The position numbers and the translations under genes are program-made. A stretch of 53,671 nt of DNA from Clostridiaceae bacterium. GTDB taxonomy: Bacteria > Bacillota > Clostridia > Saccharofermentanales > UBA5734. Position 1 is the first letter of the stretch. Every line of letters begins with the position of its first letter. The stretch spans positions 1-53,671 of the forward strand of contig JAAYJD010000214.1 of NCBI GenBank assembly GCA_012523135.1, in the 5' to 3' direction. Positions 9,132 through 23,362 of this stretch are shown here, piece after piece. A model generated the notes under the pieces. It saw only the letters and a list, made by a program, of their open reading frames with translations, was not told the DNA's origin and did not search any database.

Positions 9132-9770
9132 TTATTCGTTGACGACCGCCAGCCGGATGCTGTAATGGATATCTGCATAGGCCAGCAGCGCCGCCTCCGC
9201 CGCCGACAAGTCCAGGCAGAGCAGCAGGTCGCCGCCCTGCGGGCTGGCCAGGACCGCCGAACTGCCTTGCGCCGAGCCGTCGAGCACCCGCAGCACAGCG
9301 ATGTTTTTCAACACCTGCACCGGTTCATTGACCGCACCACGCGGAACCAGATGCAGATCGACCCGGCAGCCGGCGGCTAGCCAGTAGCCGTTGGCCGAAG
9401 CACGGTCAAGGCGCAGCGTCATCAGCCGCCGTCCCGGACCCGGACCGGGATATTGGATGCCTTCCGGCTGGTCGTTTAAACGGCGGGTATGCAATATCTC
9501 GCCTTCAGCCAGTCCGGTCGGTGTCCACAGCCCGACCGCGGCCTCCGGATCCATAAGCCATTCGGAATGGACGCTCTCCGCCGGGATCCGGACCGTTGTG
9601 ACATCCTCCGCTGCCAGCGAAGCGCCGGCGGGGATGTCACGTCGCGCGACGGCGACCGATGTCCATTCAACCTGCGGCCGGGACGCGCCAGCCAGCCAGG
9701 ACAGGCCCGCCAGGATAACCGTCGCAGCCAGCGTCAGCAAGATTTGCTTTGTGCGTTGCATCGCGCTCAC
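9132..9770 (-). CDS. cpaB: Flp pilus assembly protein CpaB/RcpC (SAF domain)
   Basis: N-terminal TM, VAVARRDIPAG SAF motif, GEIL, GCRVDLHL, VLKNIAVL. Last gene of the tad cluster. Confidence 0.85.
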   Translation of the reverse strand: MSAMQRTKQILLTLAATVILAGLSWLAGASRPQVEWTSVAVARRDIPAGASLAAEDVTTVRIPAESVHSEWLMDPEAAVGLWTPTGLAEGEILHTRRLNDQPEGIQYPGPGPGRRLMTLRLDRASANGYWLAAGCRVDLHLVPRGAVNEPVQVLKNIAVLRVLDGSAQGSSAVLASPQGGDLLLCLDLSAAEAALLAYADIHYSIRLAVVNE

Positions 9771-9792
9771 CTCATCGTATGTGATGAATCAT

Positions 9793-10284
9793 CTAGTCAA
9801 TCAGGATCTCCAGGGCTTGGCGGATCAGGACCGTCTGACCGTCCGGCAGCGTCAGGATCGCGTTGATCTGGACGATCGGCTGGCTGTCCGGCTGTCGTTC
9901 CTGCATCCAGTGGTCGGGTTCGTAATCCAGGTAATGCGTGTAAAAACGGATACTGTTCAGTTCCAGGCGATCGGCCAACAGGGTTGGCATCCGTGCCGAG
10001 AAGGTTTCATCCAGCAAAGCGCGGCCGCTGACCGACAGGATTTTGGCCTGCCCTTCCGACAGGCTGGCCGGGTCCAGGCACAGGCAGGCGGCCGGCAGGA
10101 TCTGCTCGACGTGCTGATGGGATCTGACCACCAGCACATGGCTGTAGGCCTTCTGCACCGCCTGGACCCCGAGCGGGATCAAAAGCAGCAGGCAGAACCC
10201 GGCCACGAGCAAAACGGATCCTACGGAACCGTTTCTGTTGTGTAGACGCGGCAGTCCAGTTGAATCGCGCAGGTAAATTGCCAT
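9793..10284 (-). CDS. Putative Tad minor pilin/pseudopilin (TadE/TadG-like); start uncertain
   Basis: Basic leader RLHNRNG|S followed by a hydrophobic helix. Position within the tad cluster. Confidence 0.6.
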   Translation of the reverse strand: MAIYLRDSTGLPRLHNRNGSVGSVLLVAGFCLLLLIPLGVQAVQKAYSHVLVVRSHQHVEQILPAACLCLDPASLSEGQAKILSVSGRALLDETFSARMPTLLADRLELNSIRFYTHYLDYEPDHWMQERQPDSQPIVQINAILTLPDGQTVLIRQALEILID

Positions 10285-10610
10285 GTGGCCTCCTCCATGC
10301 CTAAATCCGCGCGGATGCGCTGTCCGGGACAGGCGGCCTTTACCGTGAGCAGCATGGTCTGGCCAAAGGACGCCCGCTCAGGCGCCTGCACCTGGAGCAC
10401 CGTAAAATGACGGGTTTCCAGTTCGGCGACCAGAGCCGCGGCGGCCGTCTGGGACAAGCCACCGGACTGGTCCATGACGCGCGCGTAGTGGTGGCACACG
10501 GCGTCAAACTCGATGCGCTTGAACAGGGGCAGGCTGCACAGCAGCAGCGCCAGCACCAAAGCTGTCATGATAAACAACCCGAACACCGCAGCCAGCAGCC
10601 GTCCGATCAT
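10221..10610 (-). CDS. Putative Tad-associated membrane protein / minor pilin
   Basis: N-terminal hydrophobic helix, then a small soluble domain (MDQSGGLS). Follows the pilin gene. Confidence 0.6.
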   Translation of the reverse strand: MIGRLLAAVFGLFIMTALVLALLLCSLPLFKRIEFDAVCHHYARVMDQSGGLSQTAAAALVAELETRHFTVLQVQAPERASFGQTMLLTVKAACPGQRIRADLGMEEATWQFTCAIQLDCRVYTTETVP

Positions 10611-10709
10611 GTTGCACCTCCTGTCCGCCCCTGCCAGGCATCCGCCTACCCGGCGGCCAGGCGGGCCGCTTGCCCGGGCTCTTTGCCCGCCGCCGGGCAG
10701 TGCTCGTGA

Positions 10710-10958
10710 TTACGTGCCGGTTGTAAAGATGGTCGTCGCCATGTCGTTCCACCAGGTCGTCAGATTGCCCATCAGACTGGTGGCAAAGGTCTTAAGCCCC
10801 GGAATGACGATGACAGCCGCGATGATGATGCCGGCCGCGATGCCGATCACCTCGTTGAGGCCGAATCCGTTGCGTTTGCGGATGCGCATCAGCTTGAATG
10901 CGCGCTTCCTCGTCAGGTCGTGCAGGCGGCTGCGCCCGCGGGGGTTGCGTTGTCTCAT
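10710..10958 (-). CDS. Flp-type major prepilin (82 aa; 31-aa basic leader, 51-aa mature)
   Basis: GGAGG RBS before ATG at 10958. Class III signal KRNG|FGLNE with Glu at +5, followed by a hydrophobic helix. Confidence 0.85.
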   Translation of the reverse strand: MRQRNPRGRSRLHDLTRKRAFKLMRIRKRNGFGLNEVIGIAAGIIIAAVIVIPGLKTFATSLMGNLTTWWNDMATTIFTTGT

Positions 10959-11003
10959 GTCCAAACCTCCCATTAGTTATTGCCGGCAGTCCCGGGACTG
11001 CAT

Positions 11004-11873
11004 TCAGCCGAAAATCATGTCCAGCGCGCTCAGCGCCCCCTGGACAAGCGGATAGAGAAACAGGACGGCCACCGGAACCAGCCCGGCCGCGGCCGTCCAT
11101 ACCAGGCGATGGCGTACGCGGTTTGTTTCAACCTGCATCTGGCTGAAAAAACGGGCAAACAGCAGGTCTTCCATGCGCTGCATGCTCTTGCCCGCGACAC
11201 CGGTCTGCAGGCACTGCCGGATGTTGGCCTGAAGCAGATCGACATCCTGACCCGAAAAGGATTGCCGAATCACGGTGAAAGCCTGCTCCATGTCACAGGT
11301 CACTTCGAAGATCGCGGTAAATCGGATCAGCACCGGTTGGACAACGCGGTCGCGGACGGCCTCCGGCAAGCCACGCAGCGCGTCGGTTACCGCAACGCCG
11401 GATAGGATCTGGCTTTCGAGAAAGCGGTACACTTTGTAGAGGCTGCGCGAGAATGCCTGCTGCCGTTTGCGCACCCGGATTTGAACGGTATTGTTGACCC
11501 ATGCGGCAAGCCCGGCAGCGGATGCGACGGGGATCCAAGGCGATGGATGGGTCAGCAGCCCATAGGCAAGCAGGAAGACCGGAATCCCCAGCTGCGCCAG
11601 AAGGTACAGTTCCAGTGCCAGGGGGTGATGGTAACCTGCCTTTTGCAGGAACAGACGGATCCGGGCGGCAAATCTGCGCGCTTGCAGCGCGGACAGCCAG
11701 CCCGGCTGAAAAGCGGCTGTTCGGCCAGGCTGGTTGTCCAGTGCGGCCTGGGCCAGGCGCGGATCCAGGCTGCGAAGCCAGGCGGGCAGCAGATGATACA
11801 GGCAAACAAACAGCGCCAGGCCTGCCGGAAGCAGGATGAGCATGACCTGCATCGCACCGCGATCCATCTTCAT
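11004..11873 (-). CDS. tadC: TadC-like T2SS-F platform protein
   Basis: N-terminal TM, central TM pair, T2SSF-like soluble domain, C-terminal TM (LFLYPLV). Follows tadB. Confidence 0.75.
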   Translation of the reverse strand: MKMDRGAMQVMLILLPAGLALFVCLYHLLPAWLRSLDPRLAQAALDNQPGRTAAFQPGWLSALQARRFAARIRLFLQKAGYHHPLALELYLLAQLGIPVFLLAYGLLTHPSPWIPVASAAGLAAWVNNTVQIRVRKRQQAFSRSLYKVYRFLESQILSGVAVTDALRGLPEAVRDRVVQPVLIRFTAIFEVTCDMEQAFTVIRQSFSGQDVDLLQANIRQCLQTGVAGKSMQRMEDLLFARFFSQMQVETNRVRHRLVWTAAAGLVPVAVLFLYPLVQGALSALDMIFG

Positions 11874-12439
11874 TGTCCGATCCTGTGCTGGATCAGGCAG
11901 AACGCGGCGACCGCCGCCAGATAGCTGAGGATACCGAACGCTGACAGCATCCGGCCGGCCGGGCTGACCGTAAACAGCTGCAGCAGGCCAGGACTCGTCC
12001 CCAGGCGCAGCAGGCAGCTGGCCGGGACTGCCAGCAGGACCAGCCCGGTCAGCTGGCGATCGTGCGCGTTGGACAGCTTGCGACGGGTATACTCCTCTTC
12101 GATCCGGTTCAGCTGCCAGGCCAGGTGCTCAAGCAGCATGGGCAGATCACCGCGGTAACGCAGATTGAATCGAAGGGCCACCAACAGGTCCTGGAAATGC
12201 TCGTGGCTGATGTTTTGGCGCATCAGGTCCAGGGCCTGTTCGACGGCCATCCCCCCGCGCACACGGGTGACAAAAGCAGAGACCGCCGCGCGCATCGGCT
12301 GGTCCAGGCCGCCGTCCAGGCATTTCTGGCAGGCATAAAGCAGGTCTTCACGAACCTGGCACCACCTGCTCAGCGAGTTGGTCAGCTGGAGCGTCTGCTG
12401 ACGAATCCGGACCGTCTGGCCAGGCCACGTCCATTTCAT
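11870..12439 (-). CDS. tadB: TadB-like T2SS-F platform protein (short, 189 aa)
   Basis: T2SSF-like helical domain (VEQALDLM, RGDLPMLL) followed by two TMs. GGGAGGAG RBS. Follows tadA. Confidence 0.7.
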   Translation of the reverse strand: MKWTWPGQTVRIRQQTLQLTNSLSRWCQVREDLLYACQKCLDGGLDQPMRAAVSAFVTRVRGGMAVEQALDLMRQNISHEHFQDLLVALRFNLRYRGDLPMLLEHLAWQLNRIEEEYTRRKLSNAHDRQLTGLVLLAVPASCLLRLGTSPGLLQLFTVSPAGRMLSAFGILSYLAAVAAFCLIQHRIGQ

Positions 12440-13649
12440 AGTGATCAGTCTCCTCCCGATATCCGTGAATCACAACGATTCTGGCGACTTTGAACTGTTT
12501 GAGGCAAACGACAATGTCCAGGCTGCTGCCGATCATGCGGCGCAAGGTCCTGTCGCTTTCTCCGCGCGAAGCCGGCCGGGCAAGGGCCAGCAGGCGGTCC
12601 GGCACCTCTTCCGGCCGGTCCGCATGTATCGTACCCAGGCAGCGGTGACCCGAGAAGGCAGCATGGATAAAAGCCAGCGCCTCATCACCGACGATTTCGC
12701 CGATGCAGTAGGCATCCAGCGACATGGTCAGTCCGTCGCGGACCAGATCGTACAGGCTGACCGGACGGCCGCCCTCGTGCGGCTTCTTGATGCGCTGCAG
12801 CAGGCAGCAGGGTTTTTCCGGGTACAGTTCGCTGTCGCTTTCGGCGACCAGCACGCGCTCCAGACGCGGCAACGCTTCCAGAAAGGCCCGCAGCAACGTT
12901 GTCTTGCCAGCCGCGCCCTTGCCGCAGAAAAGGACGGAGCGTCCTTCTTCGGCCCAGTGCCGCAGCCGATCCGCAACCGCCTGATCGAACATGCCGCTGG
13001 CTTGCAGATCCGGCAGGTGCAGCGATTTTTGTCGGTGCTTGCGGATGCTGAGCGTCGGATAACGGACACTGCGCGGCGGAATGGTCACATTGATGCGCAG
13101 GCGGTTCTGTTCGTCTGTCACGCGGCAGTGGCTGTCATTCTCGTTGATTTGACCGCCGTTGCGGATGACCAGGAGGCGGCAGAACGTGTCATAGGTTTGA
13201 GCGTCCGGAAACCGTAATGGCAGCAACTGGCGGACCCCGTCCCTCTTGATCGTGAAGGCATCCGGAGCCGTGGCGTCCACATCGGTGACCGCTTCATCCA
13301 GGATGCAGGCCTGCAGCGGACCGTAGCCGAACAGGAAATCCATCACCTGCTGCTGCAGGTCCCTGCGGAAAAACCCGGCCCGGACACTGACCTGGTCGGC
13401 GGTGCGGGCGATGATGTCCCACAGCGCCTGGCGGGGAACCTTGTGGGCGGCGACGGCGGCGACCGTGGCGGCATCTGACTGCAGGATCTGGCTGCACACG
13501 GTCGCGACCAGCGCCTGCAGATCTGGCTGCACTGGTTCCGGACCGTCGGAGCTGGCCTGGTCCATCAGGAGCAGCGGCCGGCCGGCTGCATTTGACTGGA
13601 CTTCCTGCAGCTTGCGGGCCAGCCAGGCGTGGGATGAAACGACAGGCAT
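12348..13649 (-). CDS. tadA: Tad secretion ATPase TadA/CpaF
   Basis: YGPLQ, VTDVD, LSIRKHR, Walker A GKGAAGKTT, Walker B CIGEI, GH..LGTIHA His box. Confidence 0.92.
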   Translation of the reverse strand: MPVVSSHAWLARKLQEVQSNAAGRPLLLMDQASSDGPEPVQPDLQALVATVCSQILQSDAATVAAVAAHKVPRQALWDIIARTADQVSVRAGFFRRDLQQQVMDFLFGYGPLQACILDEAVTDVDATAPDAFTIKRDGVRQLLPLRFPDAQTYDTFCRLLVIRNGGQINENDSHCRVTDEQNRLRINVTIPPRSVRYPTLSIRKHRQKSLHLPDLQASGMFDQAVADRLRHWAEEGRSVLFCGKGAAGKTTLLRAFLEALPRLERVLVAESDSELYPEKPCCLLQRIKKPHEGGRPVSLYDLVRDGLTMSLDAYCIGEIVGDEALAFIHAAFSGHRCLGTIHADRPEEVPDRLLALARPASRGESDRTLRRMIGSSLDIVVCLKQFKVARIVVIHGYREETDHYEMDVAWPDGPDSSADAPADQLAEQVVPGS

Positions 13650-13650
13650 G

Positions 13651-15246
13651 TCACGTGTCTCCTTTCCTGGGTAAGCGCGGCAAATCGAGCTGTTCGACCA
13701 GGCGGCCGTATTCGGCTTTGTTCTTGTCGCTGAGCGCAGCCGCGTAAGGCCGCGTGCGGCGGCCGGCTGCCCGTTTCACGCTCGCCGAAATCCGCCCAGC
13801 CAGGCGATTGTCGCAAAGTTCAGCCATGGTGCTGCCGCTCAAGTCGTGCTGACGGTCACTGGGGAAAGCGACATAGTGCAAACGGTCAAGCGGCAGGTGA
13901 TGGCGGCTGATCAAAAAATCGACCATCCGGTTGACTTCCCGGAACGTACCCAGTTCCGCCTTGAGCGGCACAACAATCCGGTCGGCCGTCAGCAGGGCCA
14001 GGCAGGTGAAGGCGTCGAAGATAGTCCGGTTGACCAGCACCAGGACCAGATCCGCCAGCAGCTGCGCGGTCTGAATAACCTGGTGCAGCGAATCCAGGTG
14101 CACATATTCGTAATCTTCCAGCTTGACCGTGCCGGCGAGCAGACGCACTCGGGAGATCGCGGTGTCCTGCGCCAGGGTGCGCAGGAGCTGCGGCGTCAGG
14201 CGCCCTTGCTGCTGGGCCTGCAGCGCGGCTTCCAACCCGCAGGATTGTCCGGGCGGCCGGTTGCGGTACAGGTGACCTGGTACGCCAAGCAGCAGGTCAG
14301 CCCGCGGGTTGAGCAGGTTGGCGTCGATGACGAGAACATCGCAGCTGCCGGCCAGGCACGCGGCCAGCTCGCAACCGCAGGCGGGACCATCCCAGACACA
14401 CAGCAGGGGTGCGGCCAGGCGGACGGGTTCCGGCTGCGCTTCCTCCCGGGTCACTGCCGTCTCCCCGGTGTGTTCCGGTGACTGCCGGCCGATGCGCTCC
14501 AGCGCAAAGGCCAATTCATCAGCCTGGTCCAGGCGCTGGCCGGGATCCGCGTGCAGGCAGCGGCTGAGCAGGCTTTGCAGAGCATCTGGCACATGGGCTG
14601 CCGCCTGGCTGACCGGCAGGGACCGGCAGCGCTCAGGCGATCTGCCGGTCAGCAAGACCAACGCGGTCAGGCCAAGCGCATAGAGATCGCTGCCCGCCCC
14701 GCAGCCTCTGCCAGCTTGTTCCGGCGCGGCATACTGGGGCGTCAAGGCCTGCGGGGTATCCGCGGCGTAGGCCACCGGTGGCCTTTCTTCGTCAGACTGC
14801 AGGAACCGCGCCGCGCCGAAATCGATCAGTCCGGCACGGTTACGCTCGTCGATGACCAGGTTGTCCGGCTTGATGTCGAGATGCGCCAGGGGCTGTTCAT
14901 TTTGCTGATGCAGATAAACCAGGGCCCGGGCCCATTGCAGCAGCCAGGGCAGTACCTGCTGCCAGGGCAGACCGCCGGGCTCGCCGGCCAGGATCTCCTG
15001 GGCGGTCCGGCCAGGCAGGAAGGAAAAAACAGCATACCAGGTGCCCGTATCGTCACAGGTCTGGCCCAGGCAGCGGGGAACACCGGGGTGCCAGGCCTCC
15101 GCCAGCCATTCTGGAACCCTGGGATCGACAAACGAGTCCAACCGCTTGAGCACGACGGGGCGCCCATCGCCATCGCGGGCCAGAAACCCGGCAGATAGCG
15201 TTTTTTCCTGCCGATATCCGTTCCATGCCAGCTTCTCCAGTGCCAT
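13651..15246 (-). CDS. Hanks-type Ser/Thr kinase fused to a degenerate ParA/MinD-like (CpaE/TadZ-type) domain (531 aa)
   Basis: VVLK, HLDIKPDN, DFG, TPQYAAPEQ, SDLYALG. C-terminal VLVIDANLLNPRADLLLG, LLAGT, LLTADRIVVPL. ATG at 15246 with AGGAGG RBS. Confidence 0.85.
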   Translation of the reverse strand: MALEKLAWNGYRQEKTLSAGFLARDGDGRPVVLKRLDSFVDPRVPEWLAEAWHPGVPRCLGQTCDDTGTWYAVFSFLPGRTAQEILAGEPGGLPWQQVLPWLLQWARALVYLHQQNEQPLAHLDIKPDNLVIDERNRAGLIDFGAARFLQSDEERPPVAYAADTPQALTPQYAAPEQAGRGCGAGSDLYALGLTALVLLTGRSPERCRSLPVSQAAAHVPDALQSLLSRCLHADPGQRLDQADELAFALERIGRQSPEHTGETAVTREEAQPEPVRLAAPLLCVWDGPACGCELAACLAGSCDVLVIDANLLNPRADLLLGVPGHLYRNRPPGQSCGLEAALQAQQQGRLTPQLLRTLAQDTAISRVRLLAGTVKLEDYEYVHLDSLHQVIQTAQLLADLVLVLVNRTIFDAFTCLALLTADRIVVPLKAELGTFREVNRMVDFLISRHHLPLDRLHYVAFPSDRQHDLSGSTMAELCDNRLAGRISASVKRAAGRRTRPYAAALSDKNKAEYGRLVEQLDLPRLPRKGDT

Positions 15247-15308
15247 GCGGTTCCTCCTGTGATCCCGGTCTCCGGCCGCTCCAGTTTGTCTTAGGGTTGA
15301 GCATAACG

Positions 15309-15335
15309 AAAAAGAGCACCCTTGCGGATGCTCTT
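15309..15335 (-). terminator. Intrinsic terminator after clpX
   Basis: AAGAGCATCC-GCAA-GGGTGCTCTT followed by a T-run on the minus strand. Confidence 0.8.
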
Positions 15336-15369
15336 GATGCGACAAATGGGGACAACAGCCGTTAATCGG

Positions 15370-16725
15370 TCAGGCGGACTTGTCGGTCTTCAAGATGACC
15401 TCGGGCGGTTTCTCGCCAGTTACGCTCTCCCGGGTGATGATACAACGGGCCACGTCGCTGCGCGAGGGCAGTTCAAACATGATGTCCATCATGATCTCTT
15501 CCAGGATGGCGCGCAGCCCGCGGGCGCCCGTGTTGCGCTCCAGGGCCTGGCGGGCGATTTCCTGGACGGCGTCCGGTTCAAAGGACAGCGCGACGCCGTC
15601 GTAGTCGAACAGCTTCTTGTACTGCTTGACCAGGGCGTTGCGCGGTTCCTGCAGGATGCGGATCAGCATGGCCTCAGACAGGCCTTCCAGCGGCACGATC
15701 ACCGGCAGGCGGCCGATGAACTCGGGGATCAGGCCGAATTTCAACAGGTCCTGCGGCATGATGTCCGCCAGGATCTGGCCGACATCTTTCTCCTTGCGGC
15801 TCTCGATGATGGCACCGAAGCCGATCGACTTCTTGCCGGTGCGGTTCTGGATGATCTTCTCCAGGCCGTCAAAGGCGCCGCCGCAGATAAAGAGGATGTT
15901 GGTCGTATCGATCTGGATGAACTCCTGGTGCGGATGCTTGCGGCCGCCCTGCGGCGGCACGTTGGCAATCGAGCTTTCCAGGATCTTCAGCAAGGCCTGC
16001 TGTACGCCTTCACCGCTGACATCGCGGGTGATCGACGGATTGTCGGATTTCCGGGTGATCTTATCGATCTCATCGATGTAGATGATGCCCCGCTGAGCTC
16101 GCTCGATATCGAAATCGGCGTTCTGGATCAGCTTGAGCAGGATGTTCTCGACGTCCTCGCCGACATAGCCGGCTTCGGTCAGCGCGGTCGCGTCCGCGAT
16201 GGCAAACGGCACATCGAGGATGCGCGCCAGCGTCTGGGCCATCAGGGTCTTGCCGCAGCCGGTCGGTCCGATCAGGAGGATGTTGCTTTTTGTCAGCTCG
16301 ACCTCTTCCTCCGCGTCCTTGGCTGCCTTGCCCTTTTTGGTGGTTACTTTGGCGTCGCGCGAGCTGTTCTCGGCGAAAACGCGCTTATAATGATTGTACA
16401 CGGCGACGGCCAAAGCTTTCTTGGCCCGGTCCTGCCCGATGATGTACTGGTCGAGCGCTTCCTTGATTTTGGCCGGCGACATCAGCTCGGCAGGCGCCTT
16501 GGCAGCGTCGCCCAGGTTCTGCTCATTCTGGCCGTCCTGGAGGATGTCGTCGCACAGGGCGACGCACTCGTTGCAGATAAAAACACCCGGACCGGCGATC
16601 AGGCGGGCAACCTGGCGCTCCGTCTTGCCGCAGAACGAACAGCTGACCGGATTGTAGCGATCGTCCTGTCCGCCGCTTTTGCCGGTGCGGCCCGGGTTCT
16701 TGCCCTTGTTGTTACCATCTGCCAT
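15370..16725 (-). CDS. clpX: ATP-dependent Clp protease ATP-binding subunit ClpX
   Basis: CSFCGK...CNECVALC zinc domain, [25 protein letters not shown] loop, GARGLR. Confidence 0.98.
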
Positions 16726-16727
16726 GA

Positions 16728-17312
16728 TCAGGCCCTCTTGTCCATGATCTGGTCGATAATCCCGTAATTCACGGCTTCTTCCGCTGTCATCCAGTTGTCG
16801 CGCTCGGTGTCGATCGCGATTTTATCCAGGGGCTGGTTGCAACGTTCGGCCAGAATCCTGTTCAGCCGCTCACGCATCCGGATGATGTGTTCGGCGGCGA
16901 TACGGATATCGGACGCCTGACCCTGGGCACCGCCGGATGGCTGGTGGATCATGATTTCGGCGTTGGGCAGGGCATAGCGCTTGCCCGGTGTGCCGGCCGC
17001 TAGGAGGAATGCGCCCATGCTGGCCGCCATGCCCATGCAGATGGTCTGGACATCGGCCTTGATGTACTGCATGGTGTCGAAAATCATCAGGCCCGAGGAA
17101 ACCTCTCCGCCGGGGCTGTTGATATAGAACTGGATGTCCTTGTCCGGATCCTCCGCCTCCAGGAACAGCAGTTGGGCTGTGATCAGGCTGGCGGTTACCG
17201 AATTGACTTCATCGCTGAGGATGATGATGCGCTCCTTCAGCAGGCGGGAAAAAATGTCATAGGACCGCTCACCGCGGTTGGTTTGTTCGACGACGATGGG
17301 GACGAGACTCAT
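16728..17312 (-). CDS. clpP: Clp protease proteolytic subunit (194 aa)
   Basis: [10 protein letters not shown] start with GAAAGGAG RBS, YINSPGG, GMAASMG, MIHQP. Confidence 0.98.
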
Positions 17313-17327
17313 ATCGATCGCTCCTTT

Positions 17328-17361
17328 CAAAAGAGCAGGGCTGCCCGGCGGCAAGCCCTGC
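17328..17361 (-). terminator. Hairpin plus short U-tract between tig and clpP
   Basis: GCAGGGCT...AGCCCTGC stem followed by TCTTTTG on the minus strand. Confidence 0.55.
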
Positions 17362-17373
17362 CTGTTATAACGT

Positions 17374-18747
17374 TCAGGTTGTGCTTTCCGCTTCGGCTGG
17401 GTTGTCTTCGCCAGCGTCAGGGGCTGTTTCTTCCGATTTTTCCGGTTCCGGCGGCGGGGCGACCGGAACAGCTTTTTCGACCAGCATGGCCACCGTCTTG
17501 CGATGCACGACGGCATCGGCGACAAAATTGTCCTCGCCGTCAACCGGCAAACGTGCCTTGAGGTCCTCGGCGCTCATGCCGTACTGCGTGGCCATCGTCT
17601 CGATCTCGGCGGCAATCTCCTCTTCGGTCGCTGTCACGTTCTCGGCCTTGGCGATTGCCTCGAGCACCAGCCGGGTCCGGATACGCTGCTCGGCAGGCTC
17701 ATGAAGCTGCGCTTTAAACCCATCGGCTGTCTGGCCCATGTAGCTGAGGTACTGCTCCATCTCGAAACCCTGATAGCGCATCTGGTTGCTCTGCTCGTCG
17801 TACATGCGATCCATTTCCTGGTGGATCATGACATGCGGGACGTCCACTTCCGCGTTTGCTGTGACGGCCTGGATTACGTTCTCTTCAAACATGCCGTTCG
17901 CCCGCTGGGCGGCGTTTTCCTCCTGCTTCTTGCGCAGGCTCTCCTTGTATTCGGCGAGGGTGTCGAACTCGCTGACATCTTTGGCAAATTCGTCATCCAG
18001 CTCGGGCAGCTCGTTCATCTTGACCGAATTGACCGTGACGGCGAAAACAGCCTGTTTGCCAGCCAGATCCTCGTTGTTGTAATCATCGGGGAACTGGACG
18101 TCGATGTCGAACGACTCGCCGTTGTTGTGACCGATCAGCTGCTCTTCAAAACCCGGGATAAAGGTTTTGGAGCCGATCTTCAGATCGTAGGACGCACCCT
18201 TGCCGCCATCGAACGGCACACCATCCACGGAGCCCTCGTAATCGATGTTGGCGGTGTCGCCGTCCTGGATCGGGCGGTCTTCGACCGGGATCAGGCGGCT
18301 GTTGCGTTCCTGCATGCGCTTGAGTTCCTGCTCGACGGACGCGTCGTCAACCGGGAATTCCGGCTTGACAGCCTCAACCCCCTGGTACTGGCCCAAGGTT
18401 ACCTCCGGCTTGACCGTGACGGTTACCGTGAACTTCAGGCCTTTGTCGCGGCCGATATCCAGAACATCCAACTCGGGCTGTGAAACCGGTTCGATGCCGT
18501 GCTCTTTGATCGCCTCGGCATAGGCTGGATTGACAGCCATGTCGAGCGCATCTTCATAAAGGACGCCTTCGCCGTAGTATTTGGTGACCAGCGCCATCGG
18601 CGCTTTACCCTTGCGAAAGCCCGGAATCATGAATTGGTTGGCGTTTTTCTTGAATGAACGCTGCAGCGCCTCGTTAAAGACCTCAGCTGATAAATCAATG
18701 GTCAATACGACCTTGTGTTCTTCCTTTTTCTCCAGCACAGATGCCAT
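17374..18747 (-). CDS. tig: Trigger factor
   Basis: [10 protein letters not shown] ribosome-binding motif and FKBP domain ([15 protein letters not shown]). tig-clpP-clpX synteny. Confidence 0.97.
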
Positions 18748-18800
18748 TGCATTAATCCTCCCACACGGCACAAATAGGCCAATCTTGCAAATGCTCCAAG

Positions 18801-18829
18801 ATTCTAACATAGCCGCCCGTGCTTGTAAA
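18801..18829 (-). promoter_or_regulatory. Putative sigma-A promoter of tig
   Basis: TTTACA (18829-18824), 17-bp spacer, TAGAAT (18806-18801), with an extended -10 TG. Confidence 0.6.
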
Positions 18830-18976
18830 GGAACAAACGGTACTGGAACAGCCATTTTTGAGATATTGTTTGACTTTTTTTGACGTTAACATGGCCTTGC
18901 CTGCCGGACCGGACACGTGGCGTCGCGGTAACAGGCGTGCTACAATAACGGCAGCAGCAGATAGGGAGGTATCGCC

Positions 18977-20449
18977 ATGAGTTTCAAACTGGCCGTCATC
19001 GGGGCAGGCAGCCTGGTGTTTACCCGCAACCTGTTCACAGATATCCTGTCGGTTCCGGAATTTCACAACATAGACATCGCCTTCACAGACATCAACCCGG
19101 ACAACCTGGAAAAGGTGACTCGCCTTTGCCAGCGGGACCTTGACGCCAATGGCGTGGCGATCCGGATCCAGGCCACCACCGACCGGCGCGAGGCGTTCGC
19201 CAATGCCCGCTACATCATCAATTTGGTGCGCGTCGGCGGGCTGCCGGCTTTCGAGACAGACATCGATATCCCGCTGAAATACGGCGTCGACCAGTGTGTG
19301 GGCGATACCTTGTGCATCGGCGGCATCATGTACGGCCAGCGCGTCATCGCCGCGCTGCTCGATTTTTGCAAAGACATCCGCGAGGTGGCCGAACCGGATG
19401 CGCTGCTGCTCAACTACTCGAACCCCAACGCCATGGCCACCTGGGCCTGCAACCAGTACGGCAATGTGCGCACCATCGGGCTTTGCCACGGGGAGATCCA
19501 CGGCGAGCACCAGATCGCCGCGGCACTGGGCATCCCGCACGATGAACTGGACTTCATCTGCGCCGGGCTGAACCACCAGACCTGGTACATCAGCGTCAAG
19601 CACCACGGCCGGGAGATGCGCGACAAGCTGCTGGACGGATTTCTGAATCATCCGGTCCTCAGGGATCAGGAAAAAGTACGCATCGATATCCTGCGCCGTT
19701 TCGGCTACTATTCCACCGAAAGTAACGGGCACCTCTCGGAATACGTCGCCTGGTATCGCAAACGTCCGGAAGAGATCAAGGACTGGATCAGCCTGGACAG
19801 CTGGATCCATGGCGAAACCGGCGGTTATTTGCGTGTCACCCGCGAGGAGCGCAACTGGTTCGAGACCGAATACCCAAAGATCCTCGCCCAGCCACCCAAG
19901 CAATACGACGGCAGCAACCGCGGCCGGGAACATTGCTCCTACATCCTGGAAGGCCTGGAAACCCGCCGCCCCTACCGGGGCCACTTCAATGTCGTCAACA
20001 ACGGCTGCATCACCAACCTGCCCGATGACTGTATCGTCGAGGTTCCCTGCCATGTGGACGGCAACGGCATCGCCGTGCCGCAGGTCGGCGACCTGCCCGG
20101 CGGCTGCGCGGCCGTTTGCAGCCAGAGCGTCTGGGTGCAGCGCCTGGCCGTAGAGGCAGCTGTTTACGGGGATGTCAACCGGCTCAAACAGGCGGCGCTG
20201 CTCGATCCGCTTACCGGCGCCGTTTGCAATCCGCCCGAAGTCTGGCAGATGGTGGACGAGATGCTGATCGCCCAGGAAGCCTGGCTGCCCCAGTACGGCC
20301 AGGCCATCGCGGCTGCCCAAACCGCTTTCGCCCAAGGGAATTTGATTCCCACCAACAGCGGCTACCGCGGCGCGGCCCGGCTGCGCGAAAAAAGCGCGGC
20401 TGAAGTCGCCGCCGAGCATGACAAGCGCAGCATAACCGCTGACGCGTAA
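18977..20449 (+). CDS. melA: GH4 NAD+/Mn2+-dependent alpha-galactosidase/alpha-glucosidase
   Basis: IGAGS, IPLKYGVDQCVGDT, LNYSNP, GLCHG, GLNH, TESNGHLSEY. GGGAGG RBS. Confidence 0.9.
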   Translation: MSFKLAVIGAGSLVFTRNLFTDILSVPEFHNIDIAFTDINPDNLEKVTRLCQRDLDANGVAIRIQATTDRREAFANARYIINLVRVGGLPAFETDIDIPLKYGVDQCVGDTLCIGGIMYGQRVIAALLDFCKDIREVAEPDALLLNYSNPNAMATWACNQYGNVRTIGLCHGEIHGEHQIAAALGIPHDELDFICAGLNHQTWYISVKHHGREMRDKLLDGFLNHPVLRDQEKVRIDILRRFGYYSTESNGHLSEYVAWYRKRPEEIKDWISLDSWIHGETGGYLRVTREERNWFETEYPKILAQPPKQYDGSNRGREHCSYILEGLETRRPYRGHFNVVNNGCITNLPDDCIVEVPCHVDGNGIAVPQVGDLPGGCAAVCSQSVWVQRLAVEAAVYGDVNRLKQAALLDPLTGAVCNPPEVWQMVDEMLIAQEAWLPQYGQAIAAAQTAFAQGNLIPTNSGYRGAARLREKSAAEVAAEHDKRSITADA

Positions 20450-20463
20450 GCGGAGCGTAAAAG

Positions 20464-21270
20464 ATGTCCGATTTGTTCTGGATCCTCTACCGAATCGTTT
20501 TCGGCGCCTTGTTTGGCCTGCTCATCGGCAGCTTCCTCAATGTTTGCATCTACCGTCTGCCGCGCCATGAGACCATCGTCCGGGGACACTCGTATTGCCC
20601 CGGCTGCCATCATGAGCTGACCGGCGCCGACCTGGTTCCCATCTTCAGCTACCTGTTCCTGCGCGGGCGCTGCCGCTATTGCGCACAGCCCATCTCACCG
20701 CGCTATGCCCGGATCGAATCGGTAACGGGCGTTATCTTCGCCCTGCCCGCCGGCTTTTGGGGCGGCGGACCGTTCGCCCCCGCCGCCGACAAGCCGGCCT
20801 GGCTGGCCATCCTGCCGGATCCGGGGTATAACGCATTGGTCATCGTCGGCGTGCTGGCAGCTTTCTGTGCCCTTCTGGTCTGGGCAATGATCCTCTTCGA
20901 TGAGCAGCTGCCGCCGCGGGCCCTGTACGGTTTCATCCTGGTTCCGGCGCTGCTGCGCCTGGCGCTCCAGCCTGACCGGATCTTGCTGCACCTGGCCGGC
21001 GCGGCGTTTGCCGCTGCCGTCTGGTGGCTTCTGGAGACACTGCGTTTGCTGCCCGAAATCGATCGATCCAGGCGCCGTCACGTGTTTTTCGGACTGGCCC
21101 TGCTCGGTCTGACCGGCGGCCTGATCGCCCTGCAGCCGGTCATGGCCGCGATGCTGGTCGCGTCCGTCCTGGCTTTGCTGGCCAAGAAGCCAGAACACGC
21201 CAGCCGGCTGGTGCATCTGCTCCTGCCGGCAGCGGTTCTGGCTTCAGCTGTCCTGTGGCTGTTTCTCTAA
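20464..21270 (+). CDS. PilD/A24-like prepilin peptidase homologue with intact Zn-binding N-domain and degenerate catalytic motifs
   Basis: IGSFLNVCIYRLP, SYCPGC, LVPIFSY, GRCRYC, ISPRY. No recognisable xID or GxGD motif in the membrane domain. Confidence 0.8.
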   Translation: MSDLFWILYRIVFGALFGLLIGSFLNVCIYRLPRHETIVRGHSYCPGCHHELTGADLVPIFSYLFLRGRCRYCAQPISPRYARIESVTGVIFALPAGFWGGGPFAPAADKPAWLAILPDPGYNALVIVGVLAAFCALLVWAMILFDEQLPPRALYGFILVPALLRLALQPDRILLHLAGAAFAAAVWWLLETLRLLPEIDRSRRRHVFFGLALLGLTGGLIALQPVMAAMLVASVLALLAKKPEHASRLVHLLLPAAVLASAVLWLFL

Positions 21271-21278
21271 GGGACTGT

Positions 21279-22055
21279 TCAGGCGTTCTGCGCCAGGCGG
21301 CGCATGCCCAGTCCCGTCAGGATAATCAGTAAGGCGGAGACAACCAGCAAATGCCAGCCGATGCTGAGCAGCGGGTCTCGTCCCCCCTCGCCCAAAAACC
21401 ACATCGCGAAGCGTTGGAAGGCTGCGCTCTTGCCGGTCAGGATCGGCAGGATGATGTAGGACGTGCCGAACAAGATCCAGAAGGTCACGGTGAAACGGGC
21501 ACCCCAGCGGTACGAGAAGACAGCCGCCGTCTGGCCTAACAGGAACACCGTCAGGAAGGCGGCGAAAACGAACAGGATCTCACCGGCCAAAGCGGAAGGC
21601 TGACGGACGTTCACCCTAAAGACATAGGTGCTGATGACCCCAGGATCATTGATCTGGCTCAGACCGACGACCTGGTTAAACAGGCGTTCGAACCAGCCCA
21701 TCAGGAAACTGACTGCGGTAAATCCGGCCGCGACCGCCGCGGTGCGCAGCAGGGCCGCGCCATACTGGTTGAGCCAGGTGTTGCTCATAGCCAGCAGGAA
21801 GTTGTAGTCCTCCCGAAACCCGGCGTAGCCGCCGACAAAGAGGAAGATGGCGCCGGCGATCAGGAACACGAAGCTGCTGATCAGGATGTCCGGACCAAAC
21901 GGCGTGTACGTGATGCTGCCGGTTGTGGTCACCCGGAGCAGCAGGGGCAGGCCGAAGGCGGCCAGCAGGTAGATGCCCAGGAAAACCAGGCATGGTTTAT
22001 AGATGCTGGACAAAAGATAGCGCGTGCAGCGCAGCAGACGATGGTTGGCGGTCAT
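21279..22055 (-). CDS. ABC-2-type permease-like membrane protein
   Basis: About six hydrophobic segments. Directly downstream of the ABC ATPase. Confidence 0.75.
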   Translation of the reverse strand: MTANHRLLRCTRYLLSSIYKPCLVFLGIYLLAAFGLPLLLRVTTTGSITYTPFGPDILISSFVFLIAGAIFLFVGGYAGFREDYNFLLAMSNTWLNQYGAALLRTAAVAAGFTAVSFLMGWFERLFNQVVGLSQINDPGVISTYVFRVNVRQPSALAGEILFVFAAFLTVFLLGQTAAVFSYRWGARFTVTFWILFGTSYIILPILTGKSAAFQRFAMWFLGEGGRDPLLSIGWHLLVVSALLIILTGLGMRRLAQNA

Positions 22056-22056
22056 G

Positions 22057-22968
22057 TCAGGACACCTGCCTTTCCAAAGACGCGACCGGCGGTTCGGTCA
22101 GGTGAATAAAGAGCTTTTGCAGCGATACCGGCGCCAGGTCGATTTCCTTTGCGCGCAGCTCGTCCAGGCAGCCGGCCGGCAGCGGCGCCGCGACCGTCAT
22201 GGCGCTGAGCCGGCCGATGTCTTCGCGGCTGAGCACCACCAGGCGATACCGGCTGACCAGCTCTTCAAGCCGGTCCTTCCTTCCCGACAGGACGGTCGAT
22301 TTCTTTCTGAGGTTTTCGACGCTGTCCATGGCAACCAGGCTGCCTTCCTTGAGGATGATCGCGTCTTCGAAAATGTCCGCGCTTTCGTCGATCAGGTGCG
22401 TGGAGATGATGAACGTGCGCGGATGCTCGCCGTAGTCCTGGATCAGGGTCCGGTAGAACAAGTCGCGGCCCGCCGCGTCCAGTCCCAGGACAGGCTCGTC
22501 GAAGATCGTCAGGTCGCTGCGCGAGGCCAGGCCGATCACGACGCGCAGAATCGACTCGTAGCCGCGCGACAGCGCCTTGTACTTAAGCTGCGGGTTCAGT
22601 GCGAACCGCTGGCAGAGCGCATCCGCGTACGTACGGTCGAAAGAGGGATAGAACGACGCGGCCTGGCGGATGATGTCCCGGATGCGCATCGCCGGCGGAA
22701 ACAGGTTCTTTTCCGGCATGCAGCAGATGCGTTCCAGAGCCTGCTGGTTGTCAACGCCCGGCTGGCCGAACAGGCGGATCTCGCCGCTTTGAGCATACAG
22801 CCGCGATGTGATCAGGTTGAGCAAAGTGGTCTTGCCGGCACCGTTGCGTCCGAGCAGGCCATAGATTTTGCCGGTTTCCAGCTTCAGCGACAAGGACTTG
22901 ATCGCCTCAATGGATCCGTACGTTTTGGACAGGGATTCAATTTCCAGGATCGTGTTCATGTTCAGCAC
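22057..22968 (-). CDS. ABC transporter ATP-binding protein (YtrB-like)
   Basis: GRNGAGKTT, degenerate signature LSRGY, TIFDEP, ISTH. Confidence 0.92.
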   Translation of the reverse strand: MLNMNTILEIESLSKTYGSIEAIKSLSLKLETGKIYGLLGRNGAGKTTLLNLITSRLYAQSGEIRLFGQPGVDNQQALERICCMPEKNLFPPAMRIRDIIRQAASFYPSFDRTYADALCQRFALNPQLKYKALSRGYESILRVVIGLASRSDLTIFDEPVLGLDAAGRDLFYRTLIQDYGEHPRTFIISTHLIDESADIFEDAIILKEGSLVAMDSVENLRKKSTVLSGRKDRLEELVSRYRLVVLSREDIGRLSAMTVAAPLPAGCLDELRAKEIDLAPVSLQKLFIHLTEPPVASLERQVS

Positions 22969-22975
22969 CTCGGTT

Positions 22976-23362
22976 TCACGCGTGACCGGTCTTGTTCCGG
23001 CCCAGGATATAGGCGTTGATCTCTTCTGGCTCGATGTTCAGGTGTTCGGCTTCAAGCAGCATCGGTTCAACATAGCGGGCAAAGAAATCACGCTGTCGTT
23101 TGGCCAGGATCTGCTTCCGCGCCCCCGCCGCGACAAACATGCCGATGCCGCGCTGTTTGTACAAAATGCCCTCGTCGGCCAGCAGGGCGATGCCCTTGGC
23201 CGCGGTCGCGGGGTTGATCCGGTAAAGCGCAGCCAGCTGGTTAGTCGACGGCACTTGCTCGTCTTCCCGCAAGCCCTGCTGCAGGATCTGGTCTTCGATC
23301 TGTTCGGCGATCTGCAGGTAGATCGAGCGGTCAGCGTCAAGCTGCAGCTGCATCGTCATCAT
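22976..23362 (-). CDS. ytrA: GntR-family, YtrA-subfamily regulator
   Basis: IYLQIAEQI, PSTNQLA, INPATAAK, KQRGIGMFV, short C-terminal domain. Heads an ABC operon. Confidence 0.88.
   Translation of the reverse strand: MMTMQLQLDADRSIYLQIAEQIEDQILQQGLREDEQVPSTNQLAALYRINPATAAKGIALLADEGILYKQRGIGMFVAAGARKQILAKRQRDFFARYVEPMLLEAEHLNIEPEEINAYILGRNKTGHA

Follow-up and report, generated by a model that had tools for sequence, protein, structure and literature searches.

A conserved PilD relative of anaerobic Clostridia keeps the A24_N zinc domain beside a degenerate peptidase domain and may be a stand-alone pilin N-methyltransferase

Background

Prepilin peptidases have been described either as bi-modular enzymes, with a methylase and a peptidase module, or as peptidase-only enzymes, and the peptidase domain is present in every case (PMC10191384, PMC4471445). 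The bifunctional type (MEROPS A24A) is represented by PilD/XcpA of Pseudomonas aeruginosa and likewise by ComC of Bacillus subtilis. In P. aeruginosa PilD, the CxxC-X21-CxxC motif and a Gly-basic pair before its third cysteine are needed for methylation, not for cleavage (PMC3584216), and A24 enzymes require both of their Asp residues (LaPointe and Taylor 2000, as cited in PMC10191384). The assignment of methylation to the A24_N domain "remains to be formally demonstrated" (PMC4471445), and the purpose of pilin N-methylation is an open question (PMC10191384, PMC4471445). The peptidase-only A24 enzymes of Tad pili (TadV, CpaA, FppA), members of the same superfamily, are the known precedent for PilD activities that occur apart. 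The full-text literature that we searched, which has most subscription journals outside it, holds no description of PilD relatives with the methylase module alone, and an earlier description is possible.

Here we analyse such a relative, encoded on a 53,671-nucleotide stretch of DNA (contig JAAYJD010000214.1, positions 1 to 53,671), which we refer to in its entirety as the window. The focal protein shares with PilD/XcpA the N-terminal transmembrane helix, the cytoplasmic Zn(Cys4) domain of the form CxxC-X21-CxxC, all invariant residues of the N-domain, the polytopic layout and, in its C-terminal half, homology through TM3-TM5. It differs in that its catalytic columns are non-acidic, PF01478 is undetected and an invariant Asp stands at +2; moreover, the gene lies outside a pilus operon, with the peptidase function in a separate gene. 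Whereas TadV is a peptidase without a methylase domain, the focal protein is a methylase domain without a peptidase, the mirror image.

Results and discussion

The zinc domain is canonical

The open reading frame at the focal locus (Table 1) is confirmed as real and its product has 268 residues. PF06750 matches residues 16-94 with 111 bits in the Pfam search (cut-off 23) and with 113.6 bits in the genome search, and the motifs GSFLNVCIYRLP, CPGC, CRYC and ISPRY are all found in the protein, which bears out the original prediction of a canonical N-terminal domain. Sixteen N-domain residues are invariant in 64 canonical PilDs (G18, G22, S23, F24, N26, V27, R31, P33, S43, C45, C48, P59, C70, C73, Y81 and E85), and all 16 are also invariant both in the family of the focal protein and in a sister family. 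In P. aeruginosa PilD, methylation has been tied to a Zn site with the same spacing and flanking residues. The Gly that precedes the third Cys (Gly68) is invariant in the sister family but varies in the focal family, 70% of which has Arg there.

Within residues 41-80 (window 20584-20703), six further residues, G41, H50, L52, D56, Y72 and R80, are invariant in both families that lack the GxGD motif. Their conservation in canonical PilDs is only 42-86%, and position 41 is Pro in 67% of these. The six residues may be marks of a Zn domain adapting to work on its own.

The AlphaFold2 (AF2) model of the focal protein (pLDDT 89.8, pTM 0.87) has seven long helices and the Zn loop. A Foldseek search of the PDB with this model gave no match at E<=0.001, FlaK included; a phmmer search of PDB sequences with the focal protein as query gave chance matches only, and NCBIfam holds no family for it.

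Table 1. Coordinates of the focal gene, its diagnostic residues and neighbouring features in the window
Feature	Coordinates	Strand	Evidence
Focal CDS, PilD-derived, A24_N plus degenerate peptidase domain	20464..21270	+	Sequence, ORF list, Pfam (PF06750 only)
A24_N_bact domain, residues 16-94; part tied to pilin N-methylation in PilD	20509..20745	+	PF06750
Zn site C45-x-x-C48 ... X21 ... C70-x-x-C73; G68-R69 precede the third Cys	20596..20682	+	Sequence read
L144, column of the first catalytic A24 Asp	20893..20895	+	hhalign, MAFFT, hmmsearch, helix register in two AF2 models
D146, invariant Asp of M-I-x-x-D, +2 from the catalytic column, cytoplasmic end of TM3	20899..20901	+	Alignments
V207-F-F-G-L211, GxGD remnant without Asp	21082..21096	+	hmmsearch against canonical peptidase HMM
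Tad-type pilus operon, no prepilin peptidase gene within it	9132..15345	-	Pfam: SAF/RcpC, T2SSF, T2SSE, kinase
Tad pilin, type IVa-style site ...NG↓FGLNEVIGIAAG (Gly-1, Phe+1, Glu+5), candidate substrate	10710..10973	-	Translation
clpX-clpP-tig block, divergent from the A24_N-only gene and conserved beside it in relatives	15370..18855	-	Pfam, tblastn synteny
GH4 glycosidase gene, directly upstream	18977..20449	+	PF02056, PF11975

The peptidase half has lost both catalytic columns

PF01478 (Peptidase_A24) gave no match to the focal protein in the Pfam search even at E<=1, and a custom HMM of canonical peptidase domains scored it at 10.3 bits versus 108-158 bits for fused relatives. Weak homology to the A24 peptidase domain remains in the C-terminal half, where it can be detected through TM3-TM5: the hhalign comparison with 25 canonical PilDs has a probability of 100, reaches residue 191 and places P151 on the conserved proline of the 'IP' motif. 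The register is the same in hhalign, in the MAFFT alignment of all family relatives and in hmmsearch, with the catalytic Asp column falling on L144 and D146 standing at +2. In the hmmsearch alignment 'fiDldhriiPd' lies over 'MILFDEQLPPR', and 'lGgGDvkLmaaiG' lies over 'VFFG-LALLGLTG' (residues 207-213 for 'VFFG-LAL'); the VFFG remnant comes right after an RSRRRH stretch, the place where GxGD had originally been predicted to be replaced.

Across the focal family, column 144 is L, I, R, F, S or A and never acidic, while column 211, the position of the GxGD Asp, is L, F, M, S, A, V, I or T, i.e. hydrophobic or small, in 32 of the 33 members of the family alignment (A1). The pattern G.GD is absent from all 46 relatives classed as GxGD-less. 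Given that both columns are non-acidic, both catalytic positions have been lost, as the original prediction held; what it overlooked is the invariant neighbour D146, present in 33/33 members of A1 and aligned with the invariant D140 of the sister family (alignment A4). In canonical PilDs the position of D146 is often acidic and is non-catalytic. Besides D146, the residues of the C-terminal half that are invariant in A1 are I143, P151 and P170; a second conserved acidic residue was not found in this half of the alignment.

The structural models give the same register. In the AF2 model of a canonical PilD (P0069, pLDDT 94.7) and in the focal model, the helix past the loop begins at Pro+1; the catalytic D116 of P0069 is Pro-7 and its non-invariant acidic D118 is Pro-5, and the focal counterparts are L144 and D146. 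We considered whether D146 could be the catalytic Asp displaced by an indel, and disfavour this since +2 is the position given by all three alignments and, through the helix start at Pro+1, by both models. An alignment that put the Asp of LFDEQ and a second Asp on the catalytic positions had been named as a way to overturn the Asp-less reading; D146 instead falls at +2, and the second Asp column is hydrophobic or small. In one genus (g9) the loop is two residues longer and the spacing from Asp to Pro equals the canonical one. Together, the absence of PF01478, the non-acidic catalytic columns and the weak A24 homology of the C-terminal half support the earlier reading of this domain as a pseudo-peptidase, that is, a putatively dead protease.

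The gene is old, intact and under purifying selection

In a maximum likelihood tree of the N-domain, both long and short GxGD-less proteins of the family group in one clade (support 99/98) with no fused PilDs inside it; in the same tree the short forms of one genus are a separate clade whose placement is not settled. We calculated dN/dS by the Nei-Gojobori method, using unsaturated pairs only. Between the window and its nearest relative (G007) the values are 0.12 for the N-domain and 0.18 for the C-terminal half, and for three further pairs of genomes they are 0.035 and 0.20 (G031 and G032), 0.04 and 0.27 (G048 and G049) and 0.04 and 0.25 (G026 and G029), respectively. The C-terminal half is constrained, less strongly than the Zn domain. 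With both halves far short of a dN/dS of 1, neutral decay is excluded, and the conservation of the Asp-less form among relatives, which had been proposed as a check, takes the form of purifying selection in both halves. All 46 GxGD-less copies have intact open frames free of internal stops, and the sequence has been recovered in at least nine independent metagenome studies. The earlier suggestion of a decaying gene is contradicted by its presence as one old clade, intact in 46 of the 52 family genomes that carry A24_N, with a dN/dS of ~0.18-0.27 in the C-terminal half.

A separate peptidase and classical pilins are encoded elsewhere in the genome

In the host assembly, which is 97% complete, the focal gene is the single match to PF06750, and PF01478 likewise has a single match, a gene on a different contig (C27). 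The latter encodes P0121, a PilD-type peptidase of 246 residues that has both catalytic Asp residues and no Cys-rich Zn loop; its motifs are MVADLKTRIIPD, GMGMGDVKLL and FGPY. It aligns with canonical PilD from the helix past the Zn loop to the C-terminus (probability 99.1). P0121 itself derives from PilD: it has kept TM1, the FGP motif and the entire peptidase domain, both Asp residues included, but, unlike the focal protein, it is without the Zn loop. Its locus (L001:330-2094) adjoins a gene for an Rce1-like CAAX intramembrane protease, faces a glycogen phosphorylase gene and lies outside a pilus operon.

Three pilin genes adjoin T2SSF and T2SSE genes in this genome; their products have the N_methyl motif and processing sites that read G↓F or G↓Y (arrow, cleavage site). 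Contig C325 (L011:7771-11767) carries a ComG-like or type IV pilus cluster, made up of T2SSF, a DUF4860 pilin-like protein, N_methyl pilins (G↓Y, G↓F) and a PilT-like T2SSE ATPase, and genes for aromatic amino-acid biosynthesis follow directly downstream of it. In the window, the site of the Tad pilin reads NG↓FGLNEV, and the G↓FGLNEVIGIAAG site is conserved in 12 genomes. The orthologue of this Tad pilin at G026:C4:19032-19193 has an in-frame TGA in the genome search output.

Genomic neighbourhood

The focal gene is not embedded in any pilus operon. As had been predicted, it lies about 5 kb (5.1 kb, measured from 15345) from the end of a Tad operon that has no peptidase; there is no A24 peptidase anywhere in the window, and the sole PF01478 gene of the genome is the one on contig C27. 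In all genomes tested (12/12), the Tad operon and the araC-fol genes keep their place beyond clpX, in synteny with the focal gene. The Tad pilin is confined to family f1, where it also occurs with fused PilDs (genera g4, g8 and g11), and it is absent from genus g6 and family f4, both of which have A24_N-only genes. A specific tie between the Tad pilin and the focal gene was rejected on these grounds: the proximity is real, and there is no specific evidence of a functional connection. In seven genera (g1, g3, g5, g9, g12, g13 and g14), tblastn places the A24_N-only gene divergent from tig-clpP-clpX. Among the genes so placed are those for the 160-residue forms of g13, which are therefore positional orthologues of the long form.

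The placement directly behind a GH4 gene was also predicted correctly. Only 14 bp separate the GH4 stop from the focal start codon, no terminator-like site was found on the + strand between them, and in this genome the two genes are probably co-transcribed. The GH4 gene seems to have been inserted between tig and the focal gene, a position that it has only in the present genome (G000) and in G007, the closest relative; elsewhere the focal gene is divergent from tig, and we rejected a functional link with GH4 for this reason. Of the neighbour links that the original prediction implied, the Tad synteny thus holds, whereas neither GH4 nor the Tad pilin is specific to the gene. On the other side, a convergent operon (window 21279-23362, - strand) encoding GntR, an ABC ATPase and an unannotated membrane protein ends 8 bp past the focal stop, and the same trio trails the focal gene in G007 and some g14 genomes.

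Proposed function and alternatives

The Zn domain of PilD has been kept in the focal protein, its Asp residues have been lost there, and a separate PilD carries the protease function alone; from these observations, the two jobs of PilD seem to be split over two genes. P0121 has lost exactly what the focal protein keeps, and together the two proteins hold the full set of PilD features, which suggests that they arose by duplication followed by complementary loss. We consider it moderately likely, judging from sequence comparison, that the focal protein is a PilD paralogue which has dropped proteolysis and serves as a stand-alone pilin N-methyltransferase, or at least as a prepilin-binding pseudo-peptidase. 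Among the roles originally suggested for it, the methyltransferase thus has the best support, ahead of a chaperone or decoy. What leads us to a stand-alone methyltransferase is that genomes hold one A24_N domain, fused or free, that the Zn domain is fully constrained, that a seemingly dead protease domain is nevertheless conserved beside a separate PilD-type peptidase lacking exactly the Zn loop, and that pilins with G↓F sites exist in the genome.

As a working model, the focal protein would be a polytopic membrane protein with a cytoplasmic Zn(Cys4) A24_N domain, which would most likely use S-adenosylmethionine to N-methylate the Phe or Tyr newly exposed at the N-terminus of type IV pilins. 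P0121, the sole A24 peptidase of the genome, would cut the leader first and the focal protein would methylate afterwards. The degenerate peptidase domain would then act as a membrane-embedded docking groove for the N-terminal helix of the pilin, and Asp146, which lies next to the Zn domain where TM3 reaches the cytoplasm, would be a candidate residue for holding the alpha-amino group or taking a proton from it. It is from the comparisons above that we infer the methyltransferase activity as well as its substrates, the sequence of the two steps and the part played by D146. We know of no SAM-binding motif that could be looked for.

Four other explanations have to be weighed against this one. Pseudo-enzymes have a precedent in other families of intramembrane proteases, such as the inactive rhomboids, and the focal protein could likewise be non-catalytic, its PilD-like groove binding prepilins, mature pilins or P0121 as a chaperone, assembly adaptor or processing regulator, with no methylation involved. 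The loss of the protease Asp columns from a TM3-TM5 region that is strongly conserved (I143, D146, P151, Q169-P170), and the purifying selection on the C-terminal half, are what this explanation would lead one to expect. However, the Zn domain is more constrained than the groove (dN/dS of 0.04-0.12 versus ~0.2) and retains every residue that is invariant in active bifunctional PilDs, and where lineages have shortened the protein, the groove is gone and the Zn domain stays, the opposite of what a pure scaffold predicts; we therefore regard this alternative as unlikely. Still less probable, in our judgement, is recruitment to a job other than pilins, such as methylating or binding another membrane protein or taking part in the quality control of tig-clpP-clpX. 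The gene does lie outside pilus operons, its best-conserved neighbour is tig-clpP-clpX, and g6 has a short form without the Tad pilin; but the tig adjacency belongs to a long syntenic block that also holds the fol and Tad genes, classical N_methyl pilins are encoded in the genome, and the rule of one A24_N per genome, fused or free, which has a single exception, fits a substitution of PilD function. In addition, the A24_N domain is known from prepilin peptidases only (PMC10191384, PMC4471445).

An unconventional prepilin peptidase, in which D146 acts from a position shifted by two and the second carboxylate comes from another residue or from a partner protein, would account for an invariant Asp at the membrane-cytoplasm interface, where the catalytic Asp of A24 enzymes usually lies, for the canonical Asp-to-Pro spacing in g9 and for a neighbouring Tad operon with no peptidase of its own. 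We hold it to be very unlikely all the same, given that A24 enzymes need both Asp residues whereas the C-terminal half has no second conserved acidic residue, that the GxGD Asp is deleted or hydrophobic in 32/33 members and that another locus of the genome encodes a complete PilD-type peptidase. As for a former PilD decaying towards loss, the faster evolution of the C-terminal half relative to the N-domain and the truncation in some lineages are what might be expected of it, but a single old clade, 46/46 GxGD-less copies that are intact and free of internal stops, dN/dS far under 1 in both halves and recovery in at least nine independent metagenome studies leave this reading with hardly any credibility.

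If the focal protein is indeed a stand-alone pilin N-methyltransferase, it would provide the first proof that A24_N alone is a methyltransferase, and a knockout that spares cleavage would offer a clean genetic way into a question that has stood for 40 years, the purpose of pilin N-methylation. A conserved and widespread lineage with only the methylase module, occurring beside a separate peptidase, would be the missing counterpart of TadV and a natural separation-of-function system, in which the activity of the domain could be tested alone and methylation removed genetically with cleavage untouched. The pair would also be a clear example of duplication with complementary loss in an intramembrane enzyme, with a pseudo-protease kept under selection.

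Distribution in the family, the order and the databases

A search of 5.8 billion proteins gave a sharp break: 37 clusters match the focal protein over its full length at 42-99% identity, all of them with PF06750 only, and below these come canonical two-domain PilDs that match the N-terminal third only. A phmmer search of 1.84 billion representatives with the C-terminal half alone as query yielded only 13 clusters, none of which is a canonical peptidase. A scan of GTDB for the pattern using A1 returned 80 loci, 74 of which are canonical PilDs caught via the N-domain.

Our survey of the GTDB family to which this genome belongs covered 54 species genomes from 14 genera. PF06750 is present in 52 of them, in single copy except for one genome with a second copy; the A24_N domain is fused to a peptidase in five genomes and stand-alone in the remainder of the 52. 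PF01478 is found in 50/54, and all 38 high-quality genomes of the family (38/38) encode peptidase-only A24 proteins. Among the 52 loci that were fetched, six A24_N proteins are fused to a GxGD peptidase domain and the other 46 are without GxGD; the latter comprise long forms of 250-290 residues, two of 223 and short forms of 151-191. The GxGD-less form is found in at least nine genera of this family as well as in the sister family, and the focal type of C-terminal half in 22/54 genomes of five genera, its frame always intact. The focal protein itself shows the full combination of features that marks the GxGD-less clade, namely an A24_N domain, no GxGD, M/A-M-I-x-x-D and the invariant G41, H50, D56, Y72 and R80. 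Proteins of g2, g6 and g13 are cut to ~160 residues, and those of g13 are without the Asp of M-I-x-x-D; hence the C-terminal half and D146 are not universally required. These short A24_N-only forms (151-191 residues; L048-L051 in g2, L054-L058 in g6, L069-L077 in g13) consist of TM1, the Zn domain and one or two more helices.

At the level of the order, one family has fused PilDs only, another is without any A24_N, and the large sister family has mostly separate genes. The sister-family proteins have PF06750 only, are 275-295 residues long and make up more than 110 protein clusters, from sources such as Saccharofermentans and Oscillospiraceae MAGs, where they are named 'prepilin peptidase' or 'Peptidase A24 N-terminal domain-containing protein'. 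The first of these names, a widespread annotation for such proteins, is probably wrong. They share with the focal protein the architecture and the same invariant M-I-x-x-D (hhalign probability 100 over residues 1-184), which falls exactly on M142-I143-x-x-D146; they differ from it in a C-terminal third too diverged for single-sequence detection and in the absence of the 'PP' and 'LQP' motifs. Tentatively, and with somewhat less confidence than for the focal protein, we hypothesize an arrangement that extends across this order of anaerobic Clostridia: a peptidase-only PilD would work with a dedicated pilin N-methyltransferase, whose dead protease domain would serve in docking and whose M-I-x-x-D Asp would act on the alpha-amino group.

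A second series of degenerate PilDs occurs in genus g45 of the sister family f4 (L176 in G193, L177 in G189, L178 in G136 and L179 in G156). In this series the first Asp motif is retained (LADWDSGVIPD), and GxGD has become DYGPAKL in three genomes and GGADLKL in one. G193 and G189 each encode a TadV-like peptidase of 201-207 residues about 5 kb away, on the same contig as the degenerate PilD.
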